In this document: positions 5,974-62,339 of the stretch, piece after piece
Layout of the letters: each line of letters starts with the position of its first letter
Position numbering within the stretch: the stretch's first letter is position 1
Source: a phage
Reading direction: 5' to 3' (one strand)
DNA length: 64,000 nt
NCBI GenBank assembly: GCA_038450185.1
Contig: GCA_038450185.1_4765.1
Program-made: the position numbers and the translations under genes
The notes under the pieces: generated by a model
The model's database searches: none
The model's input: only the letters and a program-made list of their open reading frames with translations
Told to the model about the DNA's origin: nothing

Positions 5974-6005
5974 TTTGATTCTCCGTTTGTTGTCTTGATG
6001 GGAGT

Positions 6006-6034
6006 ATATTACTACTCCCTTTAATCATTGTCAA
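6006..6034 (-). promoter_or_regulatory. early promoter cassette (TTGACA-17-TAATAT) with palindrome across -10
   Basis: GGGAGTATATTACTACTCCC palindrome overlaps the -10 box. Confidence 0.45.
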
Positions 6035-12821: not shown

Positions 12822-13141
12822 TTAGTCGCCTCCTTTAATTCTTCGGTAAACTCCTTAAATGAATCATTAAGCTGTTTCTCTACCAACTTGGGTTTTTGTG
12901 CTACTACATAGCCTCGTGTAGCGTCTTTCATTGCTTTGTTTTGTTCTTCTGCAAACTTAGTTCTTATTCCGTACATCTCCTTTTGTAGTGAGTCTACGAC
13001 CTTCATCTTTTCATCTGTCTTTTTCTTATATTCTGTAAATTCCTGATTCAGTCGATCTACCTCTTTTTTATTTTCCCACCACATATTGCCACCCACCCCC
13101 AGCAATACAGATATGATAACAATGTATATCAGCTTTGACAT
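12818..13141 (-). CDS. i-spanin-like protein (N-terminal TM, periplasmic coiled coil)
   Basis: ORF track 12818..13192 trimmed to ATG 13141 (MSKLIYIVIISVLLGVGG...); charged helical C-terminus; position matches T4 pseT.3. Confidence 0.4.
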   Translation of the reverse strand: MSKLIYIVIISVLLGVGGNMWWENKKEVDRLNQEFTEYKKKTDEKMKVVDSLQKEMYGIRTKFAEEQNKAMKDATRGYVVAQKPKLVEKQLNDSFKEFTEELKEATK

Positions 13142-13156
13142 ATTACCCCCAACGAC

Positions 13157-13180
13157 AAAAGGCGGGGAACTAGCCCCGCT
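13157..13180 (-). terminator. hairpin after rnlA
   Basis: GCGGGG-aacta-CCCCGC with short U-run on minus strand. Confidence 0.4.
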
Positions 13181-13185
13181 TATTA

Positions 13186-14355
13186 TTACCAATCAATCTT
13201 ATCAGCCGGAATAAGTTTCTTATAATTCCGTAGATAGTAAGTTTTCATTGAATCCATAATACGGTCATAATCAAGACCATCAAATGCAATCATCAGACAC
13301 ATGAAAATATATGCTTGTGCATCACCGTGTTTACGTGATTCGATAGTCGCATTTGATGCATATGTCTTTCTGTCTTCTCCCGCGTGTGCGTTATAAAATT
13401 CTGTTGCTGTCGTGAAGGCATTGCGAAGAATAGACCTGAATGCTTCCTCGAATAGCTCGATTCGTTCCATTGCTTCCGGTTCGCCTTCATATGCAGCACG
13501 CAAATCATCGGTTTCGCTTTCTACGACATAGTAGATCAGGTTATTAGGAAACATCGATGTGTTTTTAATGTTGTGCACACCAATATACCATTCACTCTTC
13601 ACTTTGAACATTTGACCGTCTTTAGTGCGGGCAACAATTCCTTCGATACCTTCTGCGATCCTAACTTCATCAAGAATATTGCTAAAACGCGCTGAATCAA
13701 CCTGTAACGCATTTACCAGATGAGGACGTAGGATTGCGTCAGCAAATAGCATTTGATGCGGTACGTACTCTCCTGTGACGTTATGGCGTACATTCAGAAG
13801 TGTTAGCGACGGTTCAGAATATTCTACAACAATTCGGTTGCTGGGTGCTGTATATTCAAAGTTGAAAGTATAATCAGACCCAATATCAGCAATCTTAGCG
13901 CGTAGATCCGCATACTTCTCTGAATACAGAAGACCGTTTGCTCTCTCTGCCTGGCTTGAGTACAAGGCCGCTTTAGACTTCAACTGAACATAGCCGTTAT
14001 CAATGTATGTGCTTACTAGACTACCGTCCATTTTGTCCATGACCATTTCCACATCTTCCGGCTTAAAGCGAGCGCGATCATTCTCGCCCAAATTAAAAAA
14101 CTTCTCCATAGGACGAGATGCAATGCGGATCGGACGACCTTTATCGTCAATTTCAAACATGATCCCGCGACACTCTAACGCATCTGGTTTATTCCACATT
14201 TCAGGTTTGCTCAAGTACAGATAACTAAAAATGCGCATACGGGTTTGCATCGCCGTAATTTCATCTTTGTAATAGAACGTATCAGATCCGTCACATAGTG
14301 CCATCAGATTTTTGAACAATGCTAAAACTTTTTTGTTGTTTTCTTTTGTTGACAT
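13186..14355 (-). CDS. rnlA: RNA ligase 1
   Basis: ORF track; similarity to recalled T4 Rnl1 (LECRGIMFE, RIASRPMEKFFNL, DGSLVSTY, FEYTAPSNRIV). Confidence 0.8.
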   Translation of the reverse strand: MSTKENNKKVLALFKNLMALCDGSDTFYYKDEITAMQTRMRIFSYLYLSKPEMWNKPDALECRGIMFEIDDKGRPIRIASRPMEKFFNLGENDRARFKPEDVEMVMDKMDGSLVSTYIDNGYVQLKSKAALYSSQAERANGLLYSEKYADLRAKIADIGSDYTFNFEYTAPSNRIVVEYSEPSLTLLNVRHNVTGEYVPHQMLFADAILRPHLVNALQVDSARFSNILDEVRIAEGIEGIVARTKDGQMFKVKSEWYIGVHNIKNTSMFPNNLIYYVVESETDDLRAAYEGEPEAMERIELFEEAFRSILRNAFTTATEFYNAHAGEDRKTYASNATIESRKHGDAQAYIFMCLMIAFDGLDYDRIMDSMKTYYLRNYKKLIPADKIDW

Positions 14356-15201: not shown

Positions 15202-15234
15202 CTTGATACTCCTTAGTTGTTTTGGTATGGGAGT

Positions 15235-15263
15235 ATCTTACTACTCCCGTGATATGCTGTCAA
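15235..15263 (-). promoter_or_regulatory. early promoter cassette (TTGACA-17-TAAGAT) with palindrome across -10
   Basis: GGGAGTATCTTACTACTCCC palindrome. Confidence 0.45.
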
Positions 15264-15421: not shown

Positions 15422-15459
15422 TTGATTCTCCTTAAAGTGTATTTCGTTTCGATGGGGGT

Positions 15460-15488
15460 ATATTACTACCCCCGTTTCATGCTGTCAA
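15460..15488 (-). promoter_or_regulatory. early promoter cassette (TTGACA-17-TAATAT) with palindrome across -10
   Basis: GGGGGTATATTACTACCCCC palindrome. Confidence 0.45.
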
Positions 15489-15707: not shown

Positions 15708-15740
15708 TTTGATTCTCCTTTGTTTCGTTTCGATGGGGGT

Positions 15741-15769
15741 ATATTACTACCCCCGTTATTCAGTGTCAA
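15741..15769 (-). promoter_or_regulatory. early promoter cassette (TTGACA-17-TAATAT) with palindrome across -10
   Basis: Identical core to cassette at 15460. Confidence 0.45.
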
Positions 15770-35481: not shown

Positions 35482-38397
35482 ATGGCAGATTTAAGCAGAA
35501 TCCAATTTAAACGTACTAGCACTAAAGGCCGTCGACCTGATGCTGGTACGATGAATCCGGGGGAATTGGCAATCAACCTTGCGGATCAATATCTTCTTAC
35601 TAAAAATGATTCCGGTGCTATTATCAATTTAAGTTGTCCTCCGGTTTATGACAGCGATGTTACAATGGCGGGTAAGGTTAAAGGAAATAATTATATTTTA
35701 AGTAAAACCGCTAATTATTTTGAAGACCAAACCGCGCGAGATCTTAATTATTTTGGTGCGTTTCGACCGAATAATGCTGATGGTTGGTCTAACTTGATTC
35801 TGAACATTCCTCATCCCAGCGGTAAAGCACACGGTCGCGGGTTTGAATTTGAATATGGTTCTAGTTCCTCTCAGGTTAAAACCTATGGCTTTGATAAGGA
35901 TGGTAACAAGAGATTCAGCTTTCGCATGTATCACGAAGGTGATAAACCTACTCCCTCAGAATTGAACGTCTATAGCAAACAAGAAATTGACCGTATGTTT
36001 GTTAAGAACGTTAAAATGGTTGTTCCTTCTGGTGGTGCAACCCGTGGTTATTTTAAAATTGCATCCGCAATGATCCCGCAGAGTGGTCGGATGGCGTTTC
36101 TGCGAATCTATGGTGGTAATGGATATAATGTAAACTCATATGATCAAGTTGATTTTCTTGAAATTGTTATTCGTAGTGGTAATAATAACCCTAAAGGCGT
36201 TAGTATTGCTGCATATCGTCGAAATTCTTTGAACGTCCATGAAGTATTTGCAATTAATACTTCCGGTGATAACTATGACATTTATGTTAACTATGGTCGC
36301 TTCACCGATAACGTTATTGTAGAGTTTGGAAAAACTGTTGATGTTGCATTGACTGTTCACGATGTTCCTGAATTTTCGGCGACTAAACCAGAAACCGGAA
36401 CTAAATTTGATGCTCGTGTTATTACTATGTTCAACACCGAAAACAAAGCCGGAACGTTGATGTTTGATAATAACTCACAAACAACCTATGATATTGTTAG
36501 CCTTAATAACGTACCAGACAACAATAAAAAATATATGCGTAAATTCCGCAGTCGTGCGGCGGAAACAATATGGCATGAAACTGTTCAAGGTGATGTTTAT
36601 CGCCTAGCGACAGGGGCTACCGATCAGAAAGAAGTGTTAAAGATTGTAGGTAGTGATGGTTTATTTGTCAATAGACTTCATCTGCAAGGCAATAACGCGA
36701 TTCGTATGTGGCGTCCTACTGGTTGTAGTAACTATTTTGAATATATGGATCAGCGAGACGGGGCTAATAAACGTCAAGGCTGGTTTGGTTTTGGTTCTAC
36801 AGAAACCAACGATTTTCAATGGTATAGTGACGAAGGTAAAAACTTTGTTAAGCTAGAAGCAAGTGGTCAAGTATCTTTAAGCGCAGGTGCAACCAAAATT
36901 GTATACACTAATGGTCAATATGTAGCTGCCAATTCTGATGCATACCGTATGATCTTTGGTAATTATGGTGCATTCTGGCGTAATGACGGCACTAAAGTTT
37001 ATCTTATGTCTACTGCCGAAAATGATAGATTTGGTGGCTGGAATGCCTATCGTCCATTCATTTATGATTTAACTTCCGGTAACGTTCAATTAGGCGGTGA
37101 TGGTAACGAAGATGCATTAACGTTAGAAAGTGCTTCTCGTGCCGCTCGCTTTAGTAATGACGTTTACATTAAGAAAGGGCTTTTGACTTTCGACGCTGGG
37201 CGATTAAATTCCCGCGATTACTTCCGGTTTAACCATTGGGGCGATAGCAATAACGGTCGCGATAACATTTTACAGCTTGACGATAGCATAGGTCCACACT
37301 TCACCACTGAACGTACTTTAGCAACTGGTTCAATTAAAACTAAATTCTTCGGTAATTTGGAATCTGCTGGTCAAATTAAATGGGGTAAAGGGACCGCCAC
37401 ATCTACGTTTACTCTACGTGTATGGGGTAGCGATAGCCGTAAACAAATATTTGAATGCGGCGATGAAAGCGGGTGGCATTGGTATACCCAACGCGCGGGC
37501 GGTCCTGATACTTCTGCAATTGATTTTGCCATCAATGGTACTGTTAGGCCTCAAGCAATTCACACTGGCGGTAATATCACTATCAACGGTGCTGATATTG
37601 AGTTTAAACGCACTGGCAATAAGCACATCTGGTTTAGAGATCCAAACGGCTTAGAGTTAGGTCTGTTGTACTGCGATGATGCTGGCGTTATGCGTATGCG
37701 CGGTAAGAAACAAACCGAAGTCTGGAAATTCGGCGGTAAGATGATTCAACTTGAAACTGGTACTGTAACCGGTGGCGGTAGTGGTCTGATTCGTGGTAGC
37801 GTTGCTGGTGGTAGTTGGACTAGCTGGCGCGATCGTGCTTCCGGTTTACAGGTCGACTGTCAACAATCAACCGTTTCCGCTCATAACGTATGGAAAGCAA
37901 CCCATCAAGGTAAATATCATATAGCAGCAATGGGTGTACACGTTCCTAGTGGTACTATCGGAAATGCTATGGTGCGTATGCACGTACACGATGCAACTTT
38001 TGACTTTGGTGCGAGCGGTGACTTCCAGGCAAGCCGTAATGGTAATTTTAACGATGTTTATATTCGTTCTGATGCTCGCCTTAAAATCAATAAGGAAGAG
38101 TATAAGGAGAATGCCACCGATAAAGTTAATCGCTTGACGGTATACACCTATGACAAGGTTAAATCTTTAACCGACCGTACTGTCATTGCTCATGAAGTTG
38201 GTATTATTGCTCAGGATCTTGAAAAAGAATTGCCGGAAGCCGTAACAACTTCTAAGATCGGCGATCCAGATAATCCAGAAGAGATCTTAACAATTTCTAA
38301 CTCCGCTGTCAACGCTCTTTTAATTAAGGCGTTTCAGGAAATGAGCGAAGAACTTAAAGCCGTTAAAGCTGAACTAGCGGAACTTAAAAAGAATTAA
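35482..38397 (+). CDS. 37: long tail fibre distal subunit with C-terminal intramolecular chaperone domain
   Basis: ORF track; 971 aa; C-terminal SDARLK ... IAHEVGIIAQDLEKELPEAV ... ISNSAVNALLIKAFQE resembles the self-cleaving S74 chaperone domain. Confidence 0.8.
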   Translation: MADLSRIQFKRTSTKGRRPDAGTMNPGELAINLADQYLLTKNDSGAIINLSCPPVYDSDVTMAGKVKGNNYILSKTANYFEDQTARDLNYFGAFRPNNADGWSNLILNIPHPSGKAHGRGFEFEYGSSSSQVKTYGFDKDGNKRFSFRMYHEGDKPTPSELNVYSKQEIDRMFVKNVKMVVPSGGATRGYFKIASAMIPQSGRMAFLRIYGGNGYNVNSYDQVDFLEIVIRSGNNNPKGVSIAAYRRNSLNVHEVFAINTSGDNYDIYVNYGRFTDNVIVEFGKTVDVALTVHDVPEFSATKPETGTKFDARVITMFNTENKAGTLMFDNNSQTTYDIVSLNNVPDNNKKYMRKFRSRAAETIWHETVQGDVYRLATGATDQKEVLKIVGSDGLFVNRLHLQGNNAIRMWRPTGCSNYFEYMDQRDGANKRQGWFGFGSTETNDFQWYSDEGKNFVKLEASGQVSLSAGATKIVYTNGQYVAANSDAYRMIFGNYGAFWRNDGTKVYLMSTAENDRFGGWNAYRPFIYDLTSGNVQLGGDGNEDALTLESASRAARFSNDVYIKKGLLTFDAGRLNSRDYFRFNHWGDSNNGRDNILQLDDSIGPHFTTERTLATGSIKTKFFGNLESAGQIKWGKGTATSTFTLRVWGSDSRKQIFECGDESGWHWYTQRAGGPDTSAIDFAINGTVRPQAIHTGGNITINGADIEFKRTGNKHIWFRDPNGLELGLLYCDDAGVMRMRGKKQTEVWKFGGKMIQLETGTVTGGGSGLIRGSVAGGSWTSWRDRASGLQVDCQQSTVSAHNVWKATHQGKYHIAAMGVHVPSGTIGNAMVRMHVHDATFDFGASGDFQASRNGNFNDVYIRSDARLKINKEEYKENATDKVNRLTVYTYDKVKSLTDRTVIAHEVGIIAQDLEKELPEAVTTSKIGDPDNPEEILTISNSAVNALLIKAFQEMSEELKAVKAELAELKKN

Positions 38398-38439: not shown

Positions 38440-38679
38440 ATGGTCTATAATATCGTCATTGGTGCTTTGTCTAGTTTCGGAATGAAACTATTATCAAAGT
38501 TAATTAGTGAAAAGATGCTCACTAAAATTTTCTTCTATTGCGCTCGTCGTCTTGCGGCTTATACCAATACGCCAATTGATGATCGTTTTGTGGAAGAACT
38601 TTATAAGGAGTTTAATAAAGATCAGTCAGAAGATAGTAACGAGCAAGATAAACCTAGTGATAGTCAACTACCTAAATAA
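38440..38679 (+). CDS. hypothetical small protein between 37 and holin
   Basis: ORF track; ATG 38440 with AAGGAG SD; occupies the slot where T4 has gp38. Confidence 0.5.
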   Translation: MVYNIVIGALSSFGMKLLSKLISEKMLTKIFFYCARRLAAYTNTPIDDRFVEELYKEFNKDQSEDSNEQDKPSDSQLPK

Positions 38680-38712: not shown

Positions 38713-39369
38713 ATGCAAGTTTCTGAAAAAGGGAAAGACTTTGCTATCTCAAATGTCCTGCGCGCTATTTTCACAACTAAAAGCACGGAGTTGCTCGTAC
38801 TTCGTGTTTTTGCTGCCGTCGTGTTGTCCGTATTGGCATTTGTCGTTTATAGTAAAAACGAGTTATTTGCGCTTTATAAAGAGACTCGTTATGAGACTTA
38901 TGCTCACATTCTCCAGGTAGAGAAAGACCGCAATTTTGATAATGCAGCACAGGAGCAGTTACAGATAGTTCATGTGTCGGCTGATGCCGATTTTTCTGCT
39001 GTTTTTAGCTTTCGTCCGAAAAACCTAAACTATTTTGTTGATTTGGTGGCATATGAAGGAAAGCTACCGCATACGATCGATGAAAAGAATTTAGGCGGAT
39101 TCCCTATCAATAAAACGAGTGAAGAATATCGTAGGCATCTTTTAGGTAAATCATATTTTACCGATAAAGATTTCCAGTATATTCCATCGAGGGAGAAAAA
39201 ATTAGAGAATATCGATATAGGGTTTATGTATTCTTGTCCTATATTCAATCTCGATAATGTCTATTCTGGTAGTATCGCCATTGCATGGAAGAATAAACCG
39301 GATATTGACATTGAGAATTTGGATACTCTTTGCAATCAATCTGCCAGAATCCTCGGAAGGATTAGATAA
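38713..39369 (+). CDS. t: holin
   Basis: ORF track; 218 aa; similarity to recalled T4 holin T (LEQLQIVHVS, FSAVFSFRPKNLNYFVDL, YEGKLP, CNQSARILGRIR). Confidence 0.85.
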   Translation: MQVSEKGKDFAISNVLRAIFTTKSTELLVLRVFAAVVLSVLAFVVYSKNELFALYKETRYETYAHILQVEKDRNFDNAAQEQLQIVHVSADADFSAVFSFRPKNLNYFVDLVAYEGKLPHTIDEKNLGGFPINKTSEEYRRHLLGKSYFTDKDFQYIPSREKKLENIDIGFMYSCPIFNLDNVYSGSIAIAWKNKPDIDIENLDTLCNQSARILGRIR

Positions 39370-39375
39370 CTTAAA

Positions 39376-39409
39376 GGGGAAGCCTTTCGGCCTCCCCTTC
39401 TTTTTTATT
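39376..39409 (+). terminator. intrinsic terminator after holin gene, possibly bidirectional
   Basis: GGGGAAGCC-tttc-GGCCTCCCC hairpin followed by TTCTTTTTTATT. Confidence 0.6.
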
Positions 39410-39653
39410 GGCGCATAGAAGCCCCTGAATCACATTTTGACGCTGTATGATGAAAACAGGTAGCGTACCAGTCATCGGCTTGTTTGTCTTCGTCAGAAAA
39501 CGCGTAATTTCGTTGTATGCCGTTTTCTACTTTGACCAGCGCAATAGCTGTTTCTGGAAGATCAATCAATCGGACAAAATCGCCATCTTCCCATTCTACA
39601 CGAGCAATATCATAACCCATCTCAAAGTATACAATCGCTTGTCCTAATTTCAT
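39405..39653 (-). CDS. hypothetical protein
   Basis: ORF track; ATG 39653. Confidence 0.4.
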   Translation of the reverse strand: MKLGQAIVYFEMGYDIARVEWEDGDFVRLIDLPETAIALVKVENGIQRNYAFSDEDKQADDWYATCFHHTASKCDSGASMRQ

Positions 39654-39985: not shown

Positions 39986-40318
39986 TTACAGATGAAAACC
40001 TGTTACGATCACCGCATCGATCTTACCGCTAGGAATAAACGGTTCGCCCTCTTTTATTTCAACTTTGAATTGATGCCATTTCGCTAATACTTCTTCCGGT
40101 ACACCCAGCGATTCGGCGTCTGCTTTAGTTTCATCCATAATCCAACTAGGCTGCATGAGAGCATAGTTTACATAGTCCATTTCTGGGGTCATGTCATCAA
40201 TGTTAATATATTTGCAGTTGACGCGTTTCAGAATTTCAAATTCTTTATTATCAACCTGTACCATGTATAATTCAGTAGTTTCTGGAATCAGTTCCCACAC
40301 AATCAGTACATTTTTCAT
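39986..40318 (-). CDS. hypothetical protein
   Basis: ORF track; ATG 40318 with GAGGTG SD. Confidence 0.45.
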   Translation of the reverse strand: MKNVLIVWELIPETTELYMVQVDNKEFEILKRVNCKYINIDDMTPEMDYVNYALMQPSWIMDETKADAESLGVPEEVLAKWHQFKVEIKEGEPFIPSGKIDAVIVTGFHL

Positions 40319-40326
40319 AGTTCACC

Positions 40327-40695
40327 TCACTTAACAAAGATTTTCTTTAATGCTTTCAGGATCGTTGCTTCCGGCGCTTCTTCCGGTGGAGGAAGCAATT
40401 CTACCACTTCCTCTTCCAACTCGATATAGTCTACCAGATATTCTACATAGAATGCAAGTGCTTCCATGAAATTAGATGCTACATCCGATTCACCACAAGC
40501 GCCTACATGCATTGTATAAACATCACTGCGATCAAGTTTGTGGATGCTTCCCAGATAGTTTCGGTTATACCAGACTTCCCACACTTTCAGCTTTCCGGTT
40601 TTGGTTGCTGTTTTATAATCGGTTTCGTAATGATGCAATTGACGTTGCAAATCATTGATAATAACACATTTTTCGTAATTGTTTTGAATTTCCAT
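40327..40695 (-). CDS. hypothetical protein
   Basis: ORF track; ATG 40695 with GAGGA SD. Confidence 0.45.
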   Translation of the reverse strand: MEIQNNYEKCVIINDLQRQLHHYETDYKTATKTGKLKVWEVWYNRNYLGSIHKLDRSDVYTMHVGACGESDVASNFMEALAFYVEYLVDYIELEEEVVELLPPPEEAPEATILKALKKIFVK

Positions 40696-40705
40696 GATGT
40701 AATCC

Positions 40706-40897
40706 TCACTTATCGTTAAGAAGTTCTAAAACTTTCTGTCGTACTTTGTCAATATTAGTTGATTCAAAAACTGTACGGTATCCCCAGCTTTGACCGTATG
40801 AGCGGTTGCAATCTCCATATCCCCATTGTTCAACCTGATAGTATTCAAGGAATGGGTGCTGCCGAACTATGATACCATCGCGATTAAAAATTACCAT
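40706..40897 (-). CDS. hypothetical protein
   Basis: ORF track; ATG 40897 with GTGAGGA SD. Confidence 0.45.
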   Translation of the reverse strand: MVIFNRDGIIVRQHPFLEYYQVEQWGYGDCNRSYGQSWGYRTVFESTNIDKVRQKVLELLNDK

Positions 40898-40920
40898 AAT
40901 ATAATCCTCACGTCAACAAC

Positions 40921-41208
40921 TTATTTTCGGTTGTGGTCACGATATGTTTTAAAATATCCCTCGTACCACGGTAAAACATCTGGATTTTTACCACTATACA
41001 GACCTTTAACCATCATGTCAATAAGACCGTCCGGTGTTTGATAATTACCAGCTTTTATAAGCTCTCTGATTAAAATTTCCCTGTATATGTCTTTCGGATC
41101 TTCGTAATCAACTTGTATCGTGGTTGTTGTCTCGCTTAATTTGGTTTCTGGAGTATCTTGCATCGCCTTCCACCAATCTTTTGTGATCTTCATGTTATTG
41201 AATTGCAT
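40921..41208 (-). CDS. hypothetical protein
   Basis: ORF track; ATG 41208. Confidence 0.4.
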   Translation of the reverse strand: MQFNNMKITKDWWKAMQDTPETKLSETTTTIQVDYEDPKDIYREILIRELIKAGNYQTPDGLIDMMVKGLYSGKNPDVLPWYEGYFKTYRDHNRK

Positions 41209-41219
41209 AATTTAACCTA

Positions 41220-41978
41220 TTACTTGCAAACGTATTGATCTACATCAATTGCGCCACCGAATGTAGGATGACGTTTTTCGAATCGAATAGTTCCGTCGTT
41301 TGGTTCGAAAACGGAGTATTCATATAGATCTTTCTTGCCAACATTCTTATAAAACCCGCCTTTAGTCATAACGGTTTCTTGTACGTTTGCTTTGTGTACG
41401 TTGTATTCATCAATGTATACAAAATCAACCATCTTCCCATTTTTAATTGTTACTTTAAGATCTCCTGGTTGGTTTCCATATTTGGCATACAGTGGCGCTT
41501 CTTTAATTTTTGTGGAAATTCCATCTTTCATACTCCACTCATAACGAACGGTGCATTGATAGGTAAAAGTTTCGACCTTCGGTTCTTCTACCACTTTTTC
41601 TTCCTGTTTCGGTTGTTCTTCTTCAACCTTCACAGAAGTCTCTGAATCGCTTTCTGACGCGGTTTCTTCTTTAGGTAATACATTCATCAAGTTTTGGATT
41701 TGAGCGTTGTATACAGCCTCCAGTGGCTGAATCTGCCCGATATTGATCATTGTATCACGAACAGTTTTATTCCAGTTGCGTTGCTCTTGTTTCAGAGACG
41801 GATCAATCTTAACAGCTTTAACATATACTTCATGAAGTTTCGAATCCAGTGCGGAGATTGACTCATTAACACAAATAAACTTCTCTGATTTGGTAGTAGC
41901 CTTAGTGCAATCAAAGGACGCAGCATTAGCACCTAAAGCAGTAGCAGAAAGAACGATAGCAGCGATAATGTTTTTCAT
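41220..41978 (-). CDS. secreted protein with DUF1311 / LprI-like N-terminal domain
   Basis: ORF track; signal peptide MKNIIAAIVLSATALGANA; SFDCTKATTKSEKFICVNESISALDSKLHEVY pattern; promoter cassette upstream. Confidence 0.45.
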   Translation of the reverse strand: MKNIIAAIVLSATALGANAASFDCTKATTKSEKFICVNESISALDSKLHEVYVKAVKIDPSLKQEQRNWNKTVRDTMINIGQIQPLEAVYNAQIQNLMNVLPKEETASESDSETSVKVEEEQPKQEEKVVEEPKVETFTYQCTVRYEWSMKDGISTKIKEAPLYAKYGNQPGDLKVTIKNGKMVDFVYIDEYNVHKANVQETVMTKGGFYKNVGKKDLYEYSVFEPNDGTIRFEKRHPTFGGAIDVDQYVCK

Positions 41979-42012
41979 AATATATTCCTCAATGTTTTGT
42001 CTTGATGGGAGT

Positions 42013-42041
42013 ATCTTACTACTCCCTTAATCCGGTGTCAA
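42013..42041 (-). promoter_or_regulatory. early promoter cassette (TTGACA-17-TAAGAT) with palindrome across -10
   Basis: GGGAGTATCTTACTACTCCC palindrome. Confidence 0.45.
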
Positions 42042-42048
42042 CTACTTT

Positions 42049-42204
42049 TTAAATTTCTTCTACAGTAAAGTCTTCAATGTTGTTGTGCTCGGCGAACGTT
42101 GCCAGACCAGCATTCCATGCATCATCCTCAGAGAAGAATACACCGTAACGTTCATATCCTTTAGCGCCTTCAAATTTAACCATTAATTTGTGAGTATGTT
42201 TCAT
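42049..42204 (-). CDS. hypothetical small protein
   Basis: ORF track 42049..42264 trimmed to ATG 42204 (MKHTHKLMV) after GGAGAATCAAA RBS. Confidence 0.4.
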   Translation of the reverse strand: MKHTHKLMVKFEGAKGYERYGVFFSEDDAWNAGLATFAEHNNIEDFTVEEI

Positions 42205-42235
42205 TTTGATTCTCCTTCGTTGTCTTGATGAGTTC

Positions 42236-42264
42236 ATTATAGGGGATCGCAGATCCCCTGTCAA
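42236..42264 (-). promoter_or_regulatory. early promoter cassette (TTGACA-17-TATAAT), palindromic spacer
   Basis: Spacer GGGGATCTGCGATCCCC. Confidence 0.55.
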
Positions 42265-42276
42265 CTATTTTTTAAA

Positions 42277-42537
42277 TTATTTTCGCCATTCACCGGAAAC
42301 AATGAAGTTTGTAAAGTGATTGTGGTCCGTGATAATGTCATTAAGTACCATATGCGGATATGCTTTAGTGTAATCACGTTTACGATCAGTCATCCAACCA
42401 ACGAAAGTCGGTGCAAAGTACGGCACACCGTCAGATGATGCCATATTAAACCCTTTATCAGCCATAAATGCAGCCGCCCTAAGATTTTTAATTGAAGTAG
42501 TGCGACTAATTTCAAAAACTTTATCGGTAAAATTCAT
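42277..42537 (-). CDS. hypothetical protein
   Basis: ORF track 42277..42558; ATG 42537 with GGGGG SD adjacent to upstream stop. Confidence 0.35.
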   Translation of the reverse strand: MNFTDKVFEISRTTSIKNLRAAAFMADKGFNMASSDGVPYFAPTFVGWMTDRKRDYTKAYPHMVLNDIITDHNHFTNFIVSGEWRK

Positions 42538-42538
42538 T

Positions 42539-42748
42539 TTAAACCCCCACTCGTGCATTAATACGCATTTTCTGCATAGCCATGATCTGGCTTACTGCTT
42601 CTTCTTTACGTTCTTGCGTGATAACGTGACCAGATTCCGCAAACTCTCCCGTAACTTCTTCTATGATCTCGCGAACTTGAGAACGTCCAAAGATGCGGTT
42701 TCCTTCGTAGCTCATAAATTCAGTCACTACTTGCTCAATAGATTTCAT
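42539..42748 (-). CDS. hypothetical protein
   Basis: ORF track; ATG 42748; promoter cassette upstream. Confidence 0.45.
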   Translation of the reverse strand: MKSIEQVVTEFMSYEGNRIFGRSQVREIIEEVTGEFAESGHVITQERKEEAVSQIMAMQKMRINARVGV

Positions 42749-42777
42749 GTGATTCTCCTTTCGTTTGGTATGGGAGT

Positions 42778-42806
42778 ATCTTACTACTCCCTTATCTTTA
42801 CGTCAA
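42778..42806 (-). promoter_or_regulatory. early promoter cassette (TTGACG-17-TAAGAT) with palindrome across -10
   Basis: GGGAGTATCTTACTACTCCC palindrome. Confidence 0.4.
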
Positions 42807-42813
42807 CCAGTTT

Positions 42814-43056
42814 TTAGAAATTTTTCGCTTCTTCTTCGGTCATCATCACCGCGCATTCGTGCATAACTTTGAAAACCGGGTCAATCATATCGAATGCTTC
42901 GCGGGACAGTTTACGAGAAGCGATTTTGATTGCTTCAACGTCTTCTACTACAGGAACAAAAACAGTTTTCAGTTCGTCGAGCACGGCAGCTTCTTTTTCA
43001 TTCAGGAAGATTCCAGCGTCGTACAATGCAACTTCGATAACATTAACTTTAACCAT
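42814..43056 (-). CDS. hypothetical acidic protein
   Basis: ORF track 42814..43119 trimmed to ATG 43056 (MVKVNVIEV). Confidence 0.4.
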   Translation of the reverse strand: MVKVNVIEVALYDAGIFLNEKEAAVLDELKTVFVPVVEDVEAIKIASRKLSREAFDMIDPVFKVMHECAVMMTEEEAKNF

Positions 43057-43090
43057 TTTTATTTCCTCCAGTTCGTTTCGGTATGGGAGT

Positions 43091-43119
43091 ATAATACTAC
43101 CGATGACCTTTGGCGTCAA
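43091..43119 (-). promoter_or_regulatory. early promoter cassette (TTGACG-17-TATTAT)
   Basis: Hexamers upstream of gene starting 43056. Confidence 0.4.
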
Positions 43120-43320
43120 CTAGTTTTTGTTATTTTCGTGAAAATTTTTCGTCGCCTCATGTGCTTTTCGCTGGGCTTCTTGTTGTGCTTGCTGGCGTGC
43201 TGCCTCTTGCGATGCCATAACAGACGCATTTGCAGCAGTTACAGCCGCGACCATCGCTGCGGTATTAGCATTTACCGTACATGCACTAGCCAGCAAAGCA
43301 ATTGCAATCATTTTCTTCAT
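43120..43320 (-). CDS. small secreted or lipoprotein-like protein
   Basis: ORF track; signal peptide MKKMIAIALLASACTVNA, Ala/Gln-rich mature part; ATG 43320 with AAAGGGGA SD. Confidence 0.45.
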   Translation of the reverse strand: MKKMIAIALLASACTVNANTAAMVAAVTAANASVMASQEAARQQAQQEAQRKAHEATKNFHENNKN

Positions 43321-43487
43321 AGTTTCCCCTTTAGGTTATCTTCGACCTTCACCCATTCCGCGTATTCTTGCGCGGCTACTTTCGGATTTAAGCCGTCTTC
43401 GTACATTGCTTCAAGTAATTCTTCGTCGGTTGGCTTATACCCTAGATAAGCCTCCACCTGATTTTTCCAAATTTTATACCAGTTCAT
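43317..43487 (-). CDS. hypothetical small protein
   Basis: ORF track 43317..43556; first ATG not overlapping the upstream gene is 43487. Confidence 0.3.
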   Translation of the reverse strand: MNWYKIWKNQVEAYLGYKPTDEELLEAMYEDGLNPKVAAQEYAEWVKVEDNLKGKL

Positions 43488-43491
43488 ATTA

Positions 43492-43764
43492 TCACCAGTC
43501 AAGAGCGCGTGTCTCTGCGTCTTCCCATGCTTGATCCATAACAGCCTTGAAAACATATTCTAGAGTATCATCTTTAGAGAATCCGAAGACTTTAGACGGA
43601 ATATCTTCGATTGCTACTCCCGCAACTTCTGCATTACGCGCTTGGCAATAATGCAACTCTAAGTTATCGAGATAGCGACCGCCTAATTTCTCCATATCAT
43701 CCCAGCATTTCCAGTAACCTACTTTATCTGCAATTGCCAACACTTTGCTGTTTTCGTTGTTCAT
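43492..43764 (-). CDS. hypothetical protein
   Basis: ORF track 43492..43827 trimmed to ATG 43764 (MNNENSKV) after GGAGAATCAAA RBS. Confidence 0.4.
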   Translation of the reverse strand: MNNENSKVLAIADKVGYWKCWDDMEKLGGRYLDNLELHYCQARNAEVAGVAIEDIPSKVFGFSKDDTLEYVFKAVMDQAWEDAETRALDW

Positions 43765-44467: not shown

Positions 44468-45832
44468 TCAACCCTTCTTAAGTTCTTTAAGATCTTTCTT
44501 ATATTCCTTCATTGCGGTCGTCTTTGTCCAATACTCATATTCACTATGATGTTTATCGGCATCTTTGACCAGTCGATCATACTCTTCTTGAGTAACGCTA
44601 TACAATGGCATAGAAACTAGCTTATCGGCGTATGGACGCAGTTTTTCATGTCCATTGATGGATTGCATTACCTCGGCCTTTTTCTTTCCCTGTAGCTCGA
44701 TTTCGCCCTTAATTACAAGGTCGATAAATTCAGCTTTAGCCATTGCATAATTGTATGCTTCCAGTGTTTCCGCTTGCATCAATTCAATGCGTTTATCTAC
44801 ATAGCCTAATCGGATTTCGACGAATCGACGGATCAGATCGCTCGCTTTTTCGAATACTTCTACTAAACCACGTTCGTTAACTACTACGATATTCTGGGCT
44901 ACTAACTGCGTTAGTTTAAAATCCTTCATGATTTGCTCATGTCGAGCGGATTCATCTTCGCTTTTGAAATAATCACGTTTCAGTGTTACTTCAAATCTGA
45001 ATCCGTCCTTAGAGCAACGGTCATTATACGATACAATCAGATCTTTTTCTTCCAGTGCATCCAGTACCGCTACATATTCTTCACGGTCGAACTTATAAGG
45101 AACTTCTGATATTGTCAGTTTAGTCTTGCCGTTTAGTTCATATGTACCCTCAAGAATCACACCATCGCGATCATCTCGCGGGATAACTTTACCCGTGAAT
45201 TTCGGGAATTGAACACTAGGTTCTTTATCCAGTTTTCCGGCAAGTGCTAGCTCTGTGCATTCAATAAGGCTTTCCAGTGAATGCGGTAAAATGTCAGTTT
45301 TATACCCTGTAGCAATACCACTAATACCGTTAGCCAATACCATTGGAACAACTGGCAAGTAGAACGCTGGCGGGATGTGTTCCAGATCTTCGTGCTTAGG
45401 TGCGCAATTCATATCTTTATAGATTTTAAAGAAGTTTTCATGAACACGAGCAAAGATATAACGTGCCGCACCTGCTTTCTGGACTAAACGCGATCCGAAG
45501 TTACCTTGACCGTCAAGCAGTGGAGTATTATTGCTCCATGTATTCGCCATGAGTGATCCGGCTTCTACGGCATTAGTTTCCCCGTGGTGATAACCCAACT
45601 CAGCAACACCAGATCCAATATCTGCCATCTTACGGAATTTCTTACGGTCGCCTTTACTCTTTTGAAGTGCGCACTCCATAACAAAGCGTTGCACTGGTTT
45701 AAGCCCATCCACTAATTGAGGAATCCCGCGTTCCTCGGCAGAATAGATCGCATATTCCTTAGCTTCATTATGTACAATGCTTTCAAGGCTGCGGTAAGTA
45801 AATGTGTTTACAATTTGACTAATTTTATCCAT
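44468..45832 (-). CDS. 52: DNA topoisomerase II medium subunit
   Basis: ORF track 44468..45847; ATG 45832 with GAGGTG SD; similarity to recalled T4 gp52 (GLKPVQRF, LGYHHGE, PLLDGQGNFGSR, ARYIFAR). Confidence 0.85.
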   Translation of the reverse strand: MDKISQIVNTFTYRSLESIVHNEAKEYAIYSAEERGIPQLVDGLKPVQRFVMECALQKSKGDRKKFRKMADIGSGVAELGYHHGETNAVEAGSLMANTWSNNTPLLDGQGNFGSRLVQKAGAARYIFARVHENFFKIYKDMNCAPKHEDLEHIPPAFYLPVVPMVLANGISGIATGYKTDILPHSLESLIECTELALAGKLDKEPSVQFPKFTGKVIPRDDRDGVILEGTYELNGKTKLTISEVPYKFDREEYVAVLDALEEKDLIVSYNDRCSKDGFRFEVTLKRDYFKSEDESARHEQIMKDFKLTQLVAQNIVVVNERGLVEVFEKASDLIRRFVEIRLGYVDKRIELMQAETLEAYNYAMAKAEFIDLVIKGEIELQGKKKAEVMQSINGHEKLRPYADKLVSMPLYSVTQEEYDRLVKDADKHHSEYEYWTKTTAMKEYKKDLKELKKG

Positions 45833-45839
45833 CTTCACC

Positions 45840-46202
45840 TCATACACGCTTACAAATCACATTCTTTACTTTATCAGATTTATCAGCCCAATCCAATAGC
45901 CATTTTAACGGAAGGATTGAAACAATAAACGGGGCAGCAATCAAAGCAAACATGATACCCCTGATAATCAGGAAAGCGCAAGTGACAAAACTGGCGATAG
46001 TGATCCCGACAAAACAAAATACCATAGAAAACAGAGTAATGATATAGAAAGGCCAGAATACCCACTCCCGCATCTTAACTCCTTTGTATTCTCTGAATTG
46101 CTTAAAATCTACAAACAACTCTCGGATAGACGCGTACAGGACCGAAAAATCATCTTTCATTGCTCTGAATGAGCAATCTTCTATTTTAGAATGACCTAGC
46201 AT
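45840..46202 (-). CDS. integral membrane protein
   Basis: ORF track; two or three hydrophobic helices. Confidence 0.45.
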   Translation of the reverse strand: MLGHSKIEDCSFRAMKDDFSVLYASIRELFVDFKQFREYKGVKMREWVFWPFYIITLFSMVFCFVGITIASFVTCAFLIIRGIMFALIAAPFIVSILPLKWLLDWADKSDKVKNVICKRV

Positions 46203-59299: not shown

Positions 59300-59308
59300 A
59301 ATAACCTC

Positions 59309-59512
59309 TTATAGCTCAAATTTCATGAAAGTTCCTACACTTTCATTTTCATTCTCTCCGTTTTCATCTAAGCCAAATTTGTAGACACTACCATCTGGCG
59401 ATGTGTAAGAGAATACACGAAAACGGCCTACCGAATCAAGTTCTGTAAATTCATATTCTTTTCCGGCTTCAAAAAGTGCATATGTGCTTTTAAGACATTT
59501 CATCGTAATCAT
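59309..59512 (-). CDS. hypothetical protein
   Basis: ORF track; ATG 59512 overlapping upstream stop. Confidence 0.4.
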   Translation of the reverse strand: MITMKCLKSTYALFEAGKEYEFTELDSVGRFRVFSYTSPDGSVYKFGLDENGENENESVGTFMKFEL

Positions 59513-59652
59513 TTAAGCGCCACCGACAACAGAATGAGAACTACACCAACATACATTGTGATCTCGGATAACTTTTCTGTTTTTGTTTTGTGTCCAGATA
59601 ATCCGAAAACAACAACACCGATAATAGCGGACAGCAAGCCAACGATAAACAT
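59509..59652 (-). CDS. hypothetical 47-aa two-helix membrane peptide
   Basis: Hand translation MFIVGLLSAIIGVVVFGLSGHKTKTEKLSEITMYVGVVLILLSVALK. Confidence 0.3.
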   Translation of the reverse strand: MFIVGLLSAIIGVVVFGLSGHKTKTEKLSEITMYVGVVLILLSVALK

Positions 59653-59659
59653 GATGATA

Positions 59660-59836
59660 CTAAGCACCGTCTTTCTCCTTTTTGCGTTTTTCTTTACCCG
59701 CTACACTAGGTCCACGATTGGTAATAGATCCGCTCGTTTCACCTGCTGCGATCTTCTCAGGATTGCCGCCAGCATCGCCAGCGGTCATATCTTCTTTGAG
59801 TTTATTTTCTTCAACAAACTGTTTAAAGCCAATCAT
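59660..59836 (-). CDS. hypothetical 58-aa protein
   Basis: Hand translation MIGFKQFVEENKLKEDMTAGDAGGNPEK...; ATG overlaps upstream stop (ATGA). Confidence 0.3.
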   Translation of the reverse strand: MIGFKQFVEENKLKEDMTAGDAGGNPEKIAAGETSGSITNRGPSVAGKEKRKKEKDGA

Positions 59837-60210
59837 AGAATAATCTCTTTCAGTAAGTCAACAATCTGGTCTTTCGTCAGTTTATCCTGATTCTCTACAA
59901 TCTTGATAACACAAGCGTTAACATCTTTTCGAGTAACGCGGGAGATCGTTTTAATACGATGAAACGGTTCGTAGAAATATACTGCTTCATTATAGAGCGC
60001 AGCAATTTTTCGACGCATTTGATCTTTATCCGACAAGAAAACAAGTGCTGTTTTATGACCTTCTACACCCGCCACGTTATATAGTTCAGCAACACCCCAG
60101 CGACCTTCCGGTTCAATCATTCCGGCGTGTTTACCGTCGATAAAAATAAGAATATCTCCGTTGAATGCGGTTTTGAATGCTACATCTTCCGGCGTAATCA
60201 TATTTTTCAT
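59833..60210 (-). CDS. hypothetical protein
   Basis: ORF track; ATG 60210 with AAGGAG SD. Confidence 0.45.
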   Translation of the reverse strand: MKNMITPEDVAFKTAFNGDILIFIDGKHAGMIEPEGRWGVAELYNVAGVEGHKTALVFLSDKDQMRRKIAALYNEAVYFYEPFHRIKTISRVTRKDVNACVIKIVENQDKLTKDQIVDLLKEIIL

Positions 60211-60240
60211 AATATAGTCTCCTTAGAGTTTCATTATAGA

Positions 60241-60876
60241 TCAATCGAATGTAGAAAGCAAATGTTTTGTTTCTTTCAGTTGTCGTTCAAGATCTTTGCG
60301 TTTCTCTTTAAGTTGCATTTTAGCATTATTTCGCTGTTTTTCAACATCTTTATCAATGCTCTTATTCCAGTTATCAATATCAGAATAAGTTGGCATACCC
60401 AATTCTAGACCTAATGCGGTTGGATACAGGGTAACAGTCCATAAACCGCTAATCTTCTTAAATAGGTCGGGGTGTAGTGTACTATCTACATCTTCCGGTG
60501 TCAACTCTTTTTCTTCTTTCAGTGGTGGGATCTCGTCATATGGTTCCAGTGCATTTACTTTAATATCAGATACCTCATCAAAGAATCCGCGTACATCCGC
60601 AGGAAATACACAAGCAATTTCCCAACCGTGATCACGCAGAGAAGTAATATTTTTCACTCCCCCACCATGTGTGATGATTGATGTGACATTGCCATCAAGG
60701 TCCACCGAATTTACGAGAAATGGCTTATCGTCTGTCAGATCATTATAAAACTGTGCTTCGGCTGTAGTCATCTCCAGAAACAGATCTCGGATCGGACGAC
60801 CATCAGGTGCGTTACCTTCCTTGAGAGTATAAAAGCGACTTACGATCCATTTTGGCGGTAAAGCATTAGCGATCAT
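60241..60876 (-). CDS. hypothetical protein
   Basis: ORF track; ATG 60876 with AGGAG SD. Confidence 0.45.
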   Translation of the reverse strand: MIANALPPKWIVSRFYTLKEGNAPDGRPIRDLFLEMTTAEAQFYNDLTDDKPFLVNSVDLDGNVTSIITHGGGVKNITSLRDHGWEIACVFPADVRGFFDEVSDIKVNALEPYDEIPPLKEEKELTPEDVDSTLHPDLFKKISGLWTVTLYPTALGLELGMPTYSDIDNWNKSIDKDVEKQRNNAKMQLKEKRKDLERQLKETKHLLSTFD

Positions 60877-60926
60877 GTTATATCTCCTATCAAATCATTC
60901 ACCAGCGCCCCGCAGGGCGCATTTTA

Positions 60927-62339
60927 TTAGAAAGTCATGTTATTTGCTAGCTCGTCGAGTTTTTCTCGTTTCTCGGCTTGCTGTGCGCTTTGTGGTTTAA
61001 CTTGTGCATTCTCCTGATCTGCGATCTGGTTTGGTACTTCATACCAACGCTGATTGCCTTTCTTCACACCAACGTTAAACCGTGAATAATAGTTCTTGTC
61101 ACCGTAACGAGACTTGATCTGCTTCATGAGTTGGACGCCCATTTTAGCCAGGTCTTCGGTTTCGATAACACCCAACATAAAGTCGGCAGTAGCCGGAAGA
61201 CCTGCTGATTCAGCGGTATCACTCATGTTAAGGTCGGAAGCATCCCAACCCGCGCGGGTAGTCTGTGCCGCAGTCCAACCAACAACATCCCACTTAACAA
61301 AAAATCCTCGCAGTTCTTCCGCAATCGCCTTAACTAGTGTGTAACTATTTTCAGAGTATACACGCAAGCGAGACGATGCGCAAATCCCAAGATAGTCAAC
61401 AATCACAACATCAGGTTTAAACTGTTTCTTGAGTCGCAATTCATTCATTAACGCCTCAAAGTGATTGGAGTTTGCGCCACCAGTCGGATACTGCTTGATC
61501 ATCAATTTTCCAACCGGACGATCTCCGATCTTCTTATTCTTAACACGCTTCATGCGTGCGGAATATTCCGCAAAAGAAACATTACCATTATCCAATTCAT
61601 CTAATGTAATGTCAAGCAAGTTTGCGTCGATACGTTTTGCTACTACATGCTCTGCCATCTCCATTGAGATATACAATACATCATAACCACATTCCATATA
61701 ATCCGCAGCAAGAGAACACAATCCAAGCGATTTGCCAACGTTTACACCAGCAAGCAACACATTTAGCGTTTTTCTTTCCGCCCCTCCTTTCGTGATTTTA
61801 TTCAACATCGGCAGCTTAAATGGGATCTTATTCGCCTTAGTCTGATATAGCAAGAATCGTTTTTCAAAGTCATTAAACCAGTCATGACCTACATCAGAAT
61901 CAAACGTAATGGATAGTGCTTCCTGCATGATCTCAGGAATAGCACCCTCACTCGGCAATTTCTTATTCTGTTTCTCTTTTGGTAGTTGTGCGTTCGCCTG
62001 AATCTCTAGCGCCCGTGACATTGCATTGTACATAGCACGGTCACGAATAAATTTTTCGGTTTCCTTCATTAACCAATCAAGGTCTTCCGGTGTATTCTCC
62101 AGCGAATCGAGAAGAGTTTTAGCCCCTTCATATGTTGTCTGACTGCCTCTCTCCTTGTCTAAAGCAATCTGTAATGCAGTTGGCGTAGGAATATTGGAAT
62201 ATTCGTCTACGTGCTTTTTAATCAGCTTATAAATCAGTTTTTCTTCGTCTTCGGTGAAGTAGTCCGCTTTAAGGTGAGGCCATACATTCGTAAAGAATGC
62301 GCCATTGTAAATCAACTGTGAAAAGATAGTTTTAATCAT
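60927..62339 (-). CDS. 41: replicative DNA helicase (DnaB-like)
   Basis: ORF track; Walker A GVNVGKS, RecA-like core, 470 aa. Confidence 0.9.
   Translation of the reverse strand: MIKTIFSQLIYNGAFFTNVWPHLKADYFTEDEEKLIYKLIKKHVDEYSNIPTPTALQIALDKERGSQTTYEGAKTLLDSLENTPEDLDWLMKETEKFIRDRAMYNAMSRALEIQANAQLPKEKQNKKLPSEGAIPEIMQEALSITFDSDVGHDWFNDFEKRFLLYQTKANKIPFKLPMLNKITKGGAERKTLNVLLAGVNVGKSLGLCSLAADYMECGYDVLYISMEMAEHVVAKRIDANLLDITLDELDNGNVSFAEYSARMKRVKNKKIGDRPVGKLMIKQYPTGGANSNHFEALMNELRLKKQFKPDVVIVDYLGICASSRLRVYSENSYTLVKAIAEELRGFFVKWDVVGWTAAQTTRAGWDASDLNMSDTAESAGLPATADFMLGVIETEDLAKMGVQLMKQIKSRYGDKNYYSRFNVGVKKGNQRWYEVPNQIADQENAQVKPQSAQQAEKREKLDELANNMTF

Follow-up and report, generated by a model that had tools for sequence, protein, structure and literature searches.

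What does a virulent T4-type phage gain from a small exported protein whose first half hardly varies between relatives and whose second half comes in several strongly divergent versions? The question is raised by an ORF of 252 codons at positions 41220..41978 (minus strand) of the 64,000-nucleotide stretch of phage DNA analysed here, hereafter the window. An earlier note, made from the sequence alone, had described its product as a secreted DUF1311/LprI-like protein with its own early promoter and had suggested lysozyme inhibition, with a part in lysis inhibition or superinfection exclusion. Here we re-examine the gene, its promoter and the domains of its product, follow the variation of both halves in phages and Escherichia coli prophages, and weigh the functions that could explain it.

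The gene and its surroundings

The source phage is a Krischvirus, an RB49-like member of the Straboviridae infecting E. coli. Over positions 40000-43500 the window shares 97.6% identity with phage vB_EcoM_Skers and 93-97% with other Krischvirus records among the matches listed. The ORF is real, starts with ATG (41978-41976) and is the orthologue of RB49 ORF260c. It is conserved in about 60 Krischvirus records, and this conservation, combined with the purifying selection described below, appears to be more than chance. The gene sits in a block of small minus-strand ORFs bordered by holin t and by gp52, the medium subunit of topoisomerase II (Table 1); the block counts among the early hyperplastic regions reported in RB49/phi1. 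The distance is about 1.9 kb to t and about 2.8 kb to the tail-fibre genes.

Several neighbours deserve mention in their own right. An ORF of 82 codons in the same early block has a Pfam match to Tad2-like (Thoeris anti-defence 2-like) proteins, and the same weak label is found on its orthologue in a metagenomic Krischvirus contig. Another ORF, of 66 codons and starting with MKKMIAIALLASACTVNA, has the N-terminus of a secreted protein or lipoprotein and a Q/A-rich tail; a Pfam search assigned it to no family, and it may represent a further small exported product of the block. Beyond holin t lies the distal tail-fibre gene (35482-38397, plus strand, 971 aa), the C-terminus of which resembles an intramolecular chaperone when judged by eye. 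Only an ORF of 79 codons (38440-38679, plus strand) separates it from t. Skers, otherwise 97% identical, contains in this interval an extra gene for a Gly-rich gp38-type adhesin (Skers segment L001, 599-1378), with 80-93% DNA identity to the adhesin genes of RB69, RB51, fPS-90 and other non-Krischvirus T-even-type phages among the matches listed.

Table 1. Coordinates of the features discussed in the text (positions in the window unless a segment is named).
Feature	Position	Strand	Basis or remark
Sec/SPI signal peptide, residues 1-19, MKNIIAAIVLSATALGANA followed by ASFDC (predicted)	41922..41978	minus	read from sequence
LprI/DUF1311 helical domain, residues 20-101 (predicted)	41676..41921	minus	Pfam, AF2 model, near-invariance
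Disordered E/K/P/Q-rich linker, residues 102-134 (predicted)	41577..41675	minus	pLDDT, indels, breakpoints
Polymorphic 8-stranded beta-barrel, residues 135-252 (predicted)	41223..41576	minus	type A allele
Shine-Dalgarno sequence GAGGA	41986..41990	minus	7 nt ahead of the ATG
PeSL-type early promoter	42007..42041	minus	sequence motif, fold energy, published PeSL definition
Copies of the composite PeSL motif	6000-6034, 15229-15263, 15454-15488, 15735-15769, 42007-42041, 42772-42806	minus	motif count
Downstream co-oriented 95-aa ORF	40921..41208	minus	starts 11 nt past the LprI stop codon
Holin t	38713-39369	plus	one border of the early ORF block
Topoisomerase II medium subunit gp52	44468-45847	minus	other border of the early ORF block
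Tad2-like 82-aa ORF	39405-39653	minus	Pfam PF11195, E=1.8e-6, 28.9 bits (cut-off 25)
66-aa ORF	43120-43320	minus	signal-peptide or lipoprotein-like N-terminus, Q/A-rich tail
Homologue in Klebsiella phage F48	L013 2501-3253		
Homologue in Aeromonas phage CC2	L014 2474-3193		
Homologue in Salmonella phage SSU5	L015 2501-3199		

An early promoter of the PeSL type

Upstream of the gene, a -35 box TTGACA (42041-42036) and a -10 box TAAGAT (42018-42013) are separated by a 17-nt spacer. The -10 box is overlapped by the hairpin GGGAGTA-gtaaga-TACTCCC (42026-42007; -13 kcal/mol, z=-2.1). Just upstream of the promoter lie a run rich in A and the stop codon (42051-42049) of the ORF before it, and a ribosome-binding site is annotated in phage Makalu_003 at the same place as the GAGGA sequence. 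The composite motif TTGACA-N9-GGGAGTA-N6-TACTCCC is present in six copies in the window, all on the minus strand, with 0 expected by chance. These are the parts of the PeSL cassettes defined in RB49/phi1, for which promoter and terminator activities were shown experimentally (Arbiol et al. 2010, PMC2839356). With all parts present, the promoter of the LprI gene is, by its sequence, a member of these cassettes, and the early promoter announced in the earlier note can be given a published type. A different PeSL, with the stem GGGGATC/GATCCCC, is located at 42264-42236. A strong sigma70-like match on the minus strand, TTGACA-17-TATAGT (11/12; 41021-40993), falls within the downstream ORF; it may act as an internal promoter or have arisen by chance.

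An exported protein with an LprI-type domain

The N-terminus has the canonical features of a Sec signal peptide. The n-region is represented by K2, the h-region by residues 4-17 (IIAAIVLSATALGA, mean Kyte-Doolittle value ~2.3) and the c-region by A-N-A, and the predicted cut precedes ASFDC, the N-terminus of the mature protein. The AxA/ASFDC junction is invariant in 22 homologues and is kept in the distant phages F48, CC2 and SSU5, though their h-regions differ. No lipobox is found in the 252-aa protein when its signal region is read. The secretion proposed in the earlier note is thus well borne out by these signals, from which we infer a soluble periplasmic product.

The mature part begins with the stretch SFDCTKATTKSEKFICVNESISALDSKL (residues 21-48 of the 252-aa protein). 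Pfam PF07007 (LprI) matches residues 24-76 (E=5e-5; 24.1 bits, gathering cut-off 22). This is a modest hit and an incomplete one, taking in profile positions 1-71 of 106, about two thirds of the profile. The full length of the protein matches PHROG 14799 (6e-154), a family of unknown function. The domain holds the Cys24-Cys36 pair and the motif EQRNWNKTVRD. Both cysteines are invariant (22/22 homologues), are also present in F48, CC2 and SSU5, and form the sole Cys pair within the N-terminal domain; conserved cysteines are seen in Pfam in all LprI/DUF1311 members (PMC7933661). An AlphaFold2 (AF2) run on the family alignment yields a helical N-terminal domain with four helices at residues 30-98 (pLDDT 74-85), a disordered linker and a beta-rich C-terminal domain. 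Model and sequence point to an exported all-helical domain as in LprI/DUF1311 proteins. Weak similarity of RB49ORF260c to DUF1311 had already been tabulated in 2006 (E=0.2; PMC1524935), the RB49 protein Q7Y3G7 is named 'LprI-like N-terminal domain-containing protein' in BFVD/UniProt, and RefSeq calls the E. coli copies 'lysozyme inhibitor LprI family protein'. The LprI membership claimed in the earlier note is therefore supported by the profile match, if modestly, and the function 'lysozyme inhibitor' should not be read off the family name.

Other searches added little. Sequence searches of the PDB with the N-terminal domain and with the family profile found nothing credible, and Foldseek against the PDB gave no hit for the full model at E<=1e-3. 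The BFVD search retrieved only the protein itself and unnamed small phage barrels and lipoproteins. In PADLOC and NCBIfam nothing was significant; PDC-S13, at 12-14 bits, was taken as noise.

A flexible linker and a barrel without sequence relatives

Residues 104-131 of the linker are modelled by AF2 with pLDDT <50, and homologues differ by indels in this region. The zone in which similarity to other alleles ends (gene nt 371-408, window 41571-41608) is placed here. Modelled alone, the C-terminal domain folds as an antiparallel barrel of ~8 strands with high scores (pLDDT 91, pTM 0.83). Cys142 lies in its first strand and Cys251 in its last, and these two, together with one Gly, are the only invariant positions of the barrel; in the model, a Cys142-Cys251 disulfide would staple the barrel closed.

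The lowest-rmsd fold matches of the barrel are the inhibitor barrels PhiA, ACP and PliC (2.4-2.7 A), a likeness at the fold level only. Barrel types A, D, E and F have no hit to MliC (PF09864) at E<=1. In MliC, the active-site loop motifs SxSGxxY and YxxxTKG insert into lysozyme; in the phage barrel, the 'MTKGG' of type A occupies a column that is not conserved in the other types, and SxSG is absent. Neither Pfam nor fold comparison matches the barrel to a catalytic domain. An exhaustive HMMER profile search through 1.84 billion representatives brought up nothing beyond the family itself, one fragment and three spurious repeat proteins, and the barrel has no sequence relatives outside the family of E. 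coli phages and prophages.

Two halves with different histories

The most informative features of the protein, its polymorphic C-terminal barrel and its copy in E. coli prophages, were missed in the earlier note. Across 21 homologues there is hardly any change in the first ~135 residues, whereas the barrel falls into at least six types with 16-40% identity to type A. Type A, to which the window, Skers and RB49 belong, is the common Krischvirus allele (46 records, 95-99% identity), while Phi1 carries type D and JSE type F. In Phi1, JSE, UPWr_E1 and GEC-3S, DNA identity to the window is 86-100% up to gene nt ~355-405 and then falls abruptly to 31-63%. It is back at 95-100% directly past the barrel in UPWr_E1, and past the next ORF in Phi1, JSE and GEC-3S.

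Substitution rates, estimated by the Nei-Gojobori method, differ accordingly between the halves. For the N-half (codons 1-120), dS is 0.07-0.19 and dN 0-0.05 in every pair, including phage versus E. coli prophage. For the barrel, dS between types ranges from 1.5 to saturated and dN from 0.36 to 1.16, against dS of 0.14 and dN of 0-0.004 within type A (the window versus Skers and Makalu_003). Two halves of one gene thus show a roughly ten-fold difference in synonymous divergence. Within types, the barrel has dN/dS of ~0-0.03, indicating purifying selection, and is therefore not hypermutating. A diversity-generating retroelement or other hypermutation is rejected for the same reason: dN is ~0 within a type at dS of 0.14, and between types dS is saturated and indels are many. 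Tandem Repeats Finder (TRF) detected no tandem repeats that could serve as a recombination substrate in the linker. Collectively, the comparisons show that the barrels are old allelic classes recombined at the linker onto a homogenised N-half. For an accessory gene of a phage, this is a clear example of balancing polymorphism at the level of one domain.

An allele pool shared with E. coli prophages

The gene is also present in 26 out of 5426 complete E. coli genomes. In these copies the first 371-408 nt are 95-97% DNA-identical to the phage gene, after which similarity ends; the breakpoints (nt 371, 381 and 408) are in the linker. The LprI gene is the last gene of a prophage that interrupts hicB, adjoins hicA-yncJ-rlhA and encodes capsid, portal, terminase gpA and Rha proteins. 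Such a location at the prophage edge is the typical position of a moron. In strains DEC5A and H2 (segments L011 and L012, ~13000-13350), hicB is annotated as truncated and hicA is intact.

Similarity between phage and prophage begins 6 nt ahead of the ATG; the prophage copy is consequently preceded by a sequence of its own that contains no PeSL. In two strains the stop codon of the prophage copy is followed by a 25-codon remnant of the Krischvirus downstream ORF, MQFNSMKITQKWWDAMKANHQNDIN with its own stop (L011 12781-12865, L012 12772-12860), suggesting that the prophage captured the cassette from a Krischvirus-like (T4-type) phage. GC content carries no signal of the direction of transfer (gene 37-41%, phage window 40.3%, prophage arm 40.9%). 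Near-identical prophages, with flanks at 99-100%, differ from each other by the same barrel cassette, with a sharp break in identity at the linker. Types B/C-like, E and F are common to Krischvirus and prophages, and the matched types are themselves old (50-57% aa identity, dS ~1.5). Type A was not seen in E. coli chromosomes among the 5426 complete genomes. The two gene sets document that gene flow has recently taken place between E. coli prophages and a lineage of virulent T4-type phages.

More distant homologues follow the same plan. Klebsiella phage F48, Aeromonas phage CC2 and Salmonella phage SSU5 encode, at different genome positions, a signal peptide with the ASFDC junction, an LprI domain, a linker and a Cys-bracketed C-terminal domain of ~110 aa. 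Their C-terminal domains are unrelated and, judged from sequence, look helical. A scan of genome contigs with the N-terminal domain found only generic DUF1311 relatives in diverse Proteobacteria.

A candidate envelope-protection factor

The following scheme could accommodate these features. The PeSL sigma70 promoter would transcribe the gene early in infection, and the product would be exported by Sec and cut by signal peptidase I to give a soluble two-domain periplasmic protein. In it, the near-invariant LprI/DUF1311 helical domain would be tethered via a flexible charged linker to a small Cys-bracketed barrel, ancient types of which are swapped by recombination at the linker. The protein would bind or inhibit envelope-acting machinery arriving from outside, candidates being the muralytic or penetration proteins that superinfecting phages bring with them and toxins that are peptidoglycan hydrolases, and would thereby protect the infected cell or, in the case of the prophage copy, the lysogen. 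The constant LprI domain may provide generic peptidoglycan-hydrolase binding or a scaffold, and the interchangeable barrel the specificity.

We tentatively favour this reading, a periplasmic protective binder or inhibitor of incoming muralytic or penetration machinery with the barrel setting specificity, while holding it with considerable reserve. Early expression, export, the moron position in the prophage, a constant LprI domain joined to an anciently polymorphic, binding-type barrel under purifying selection, and the Tad2-like neighbour all fit an envelope-protection factor. Further points in its favour are the shared architecture of the Klebsiella, Aeromonas and Salmonella phage proteins, the fold-level likeness of the barrel to inhibitors of lysozyme and peptidoglycan hydrolase, and, as described below, the DUF1311 immunity proteins and the lack of Spackle in Krischvirus. 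Against it stand the weak and partial Pfam match, the negative result for ScwA (see below), the lack of an MliC hit, the TKG-like motif of type A that other types do not conserve, the null result of PADLOC and the lack of co-variation of barrel type with the phage genes compared (fibre tip or adhesin, and gp5). Among candidate partners, gp5 does not co-vary with barrel type, its lysozyme domain being 96-100% identical in all 60 Krischvirus records. In a bolder version, which we consider doubtful, coliphages would possess a modular and polymorphic system for exclusion or immunity in the periplasm: an LprI 'handle' would carry interchangeable barrel 'heads', each directed against a different competitor (a phage penetration or muralytic protein, a bacteriocin or a T6SS toxin) and drawn from an allele pool common to virulent T4-type phages and temperate prophages.

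Five rival functions were also weighed. A classical lysozyme inhibitor, as proposed in the earlier note, would have a divergent MliC/PliC-type domain as its barrel, like M. tuberculosis LprI, and would target c-type lysozyme of the host environment or else phage endolysin or tail lysozyme, so that lysis is delayed or lysis from without blocked. Lysozyme inhibition by M. tuberculosis LprI is assigned to its second domain, MliC (PF09864), and the LprI-domain protein ScwA gives no lysozyme protection (PMC7933661). As no MliC match was found in the barrel types tested, the inference is not established and this function seems improbable. ScwA instead controls the levels of MltD and causes lysis when overproduced (PMC7933661), which suggests a different possibility: the LprI domain could bind or stabilise enzymes with which the host remodels its peptidoglycan, lytic transglycosylases among them, and so prepare the sacculus for phage development or lysis, and the barrel could adapt the protein to strain-specific partners. 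ScwA, a soluble periplasmic LprI protein with disulfides, offers a precedent, and the nearness of the gene to holin t would suit such a modulator. E. coli peptidoglycan enzymes, however, are highly conserved, a poor fit with ancient polymorphic barrels, and the architecture of ScwA differs, its LprI domain being C-terminal. We give this modulator the same low standing as the lysozyme inhibitor.

Less probable again is receptor masking in the manner of T5 Llp or Cor. Here the barrel would attach to an outer-membrane receptor from the periplasmic side and prevent further adsorption or injection, with the types corresponding to different receptors. An early periplasmic protein with a polymorphic binding domain, encoded close to the tail-fibre genes in the phage and at a moron position in the prophage, would be well placed for this, but the protein is not a lipoprotein, and no co-variation was found between barrel type and either the distal fibre tip or the gp38 adhesin. 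The window and Skers are both type A, yet only Skers has the extra adhesin gene; Phi1 (D), JSE (F) and RB49 (A) have comparably related gp37 tips, and other type-A phages have different ones. Lysis inhibition, also raised in the earlier note, would in its T4 RI form require an antiholin-like sensor binding the periplasmic domain of holin T. A periplasmic protein encoded near t could in principle act in this way, but the t region is ~97% identical between phages whereas the barrel is polymorphic, the same N-half occurs in a temperate prophage of another phage type (capsid, portal and terminase gpA genes), and the protein has no similarity to RI; the proposal is left without support and is highly improbable. 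The idea with the least to commend it, and one we regard as barely credible, is a polymorphic toxin with a constant N-terminal delivery part, a variable C-terminal toxin and the downstream ORF as immunity protein. The pattern of a constant N-half and a variable C-half resembles such toxins, and the divergence of the barrel extends to the downstream ORF in Phi1, JSE and GEC-3S. The co-variation is not strict, however: UPWr_E1 has another barrel type and the same downstream ORF as the window, and E. coli prophages have this ORF cut to 25 codons or absent and the LprI gene intact, on which grounds a toxin/immunity pair was rejected. Furthermore, the downstream ORF has no signal peptide, though the barrel would be periplasmic, and no Pfam family, and the barrel lacks a catalytic-domain match.

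If the barrel types of the favoured protective binder are indeed specificity determinants, they would represent a natural allelic series for the periplasmic exclusion of competitors by phages and lysogens, and the locus could reveal the role of the widespread and poorly understood DUF1311/LprI domain. Such a factor could also influence how phages interfere with each other in therapy cocktails containing Krischvirus.

Comparison with known systems

The promoter agrees with the PeSL cassettes of RB49/phi1 in the A-rich stretch, the -35 box, the stem-loop over the -10 box, the Shine-Dalgarno sequence and the start codon; nothing differs. Allele exchange in the LprI gene, for its part, breaks within the coding linker and not at the PeSL. 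Among the MliC, PliC, ACP and PhiA inhibitors of lysozyme or peptidoglycan hydrolase, the modelled barrel resembles PhiA, ACP and PliC in fold alone. A comparable architecture is that of M. tuberculosis LprI (Rv1541c), likewise a secreted envelope protein in which an N-terminal LprI/DUF1311 domain precedes a small beta-barrel (PMC7933661). Unlike the phage protein, with its SPI signal peptide and no lipobox, the mycobacterial protein is a lipoprotein. Its barrel is MliC, whereas the phage barrel is polymorphic and has no MliC profile match, no conserved MliC motifs and no outside relatives. Salmonella ScwA, too, carries an LprI domain and no MliC domain; it is soluble and periplasmic and has disulfides. 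It differs in being a helical protein of 275 aa with the LprI domain at the C-terminus, which regulates MltD, is chromosomal and is not polymorphic.

For the N-terminal domain, the closest functional analogy is with stand-alone DUF1311 proteins that confer periplasmic immunity to peptidoglycan-hydrolase T6SS effectors. EHEC Etsi4 rescues Etse4 toxicity, the Pantoea pair Pse15 (pesticin domain)/Psi15 (LprI domain) enabled T6SS-dependent outcompetition, and an effector/DUF1311 immunity pair is predicted in Salmonella Dublin, with SED_RS06230 as the immunity protein. Like the phage protein, these immunity proteins combine a Sec signal peptide with a periplasmic LprI domain. They are single-domain proteins of ~146 aa encoded beside an effector gene, whereas the phage protein has an additional linker and polymorphic barrel and no adjacent effector gene. 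By this precedent, a muralytic-enzyme-binding role for the phage protein, and hence exclusion, is plausible.

Among phage proteins, T4 Spackle (gp61.3) is comparable as a periplasmic protein with a cleavable signal peptide. Spackle is reportedly an early product that acts on superinfecting phages by blocking their gp5 tail lysozyme. Spackle is present in 927 other phage records. With a Spackle query that matches T4 S57514 at 100%, tblastn detected no credible homologue in the window, including the syntenic 41-61 interval (59300-60927), or in the complete RB49-lineage genome OZ035808.1. Krischvirus lacks Spackle, leaving its niche open, and we hypothesize that the LprI protein could be a functional analogue. 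The two share no sequence similarity, and Spackle is a single domain of 97 aa that is not polymorphic in such a manner. What is new here is a barrel cassette that is polymorphic and an allele pool that virulent Krischvirus share with E. coli prophages.
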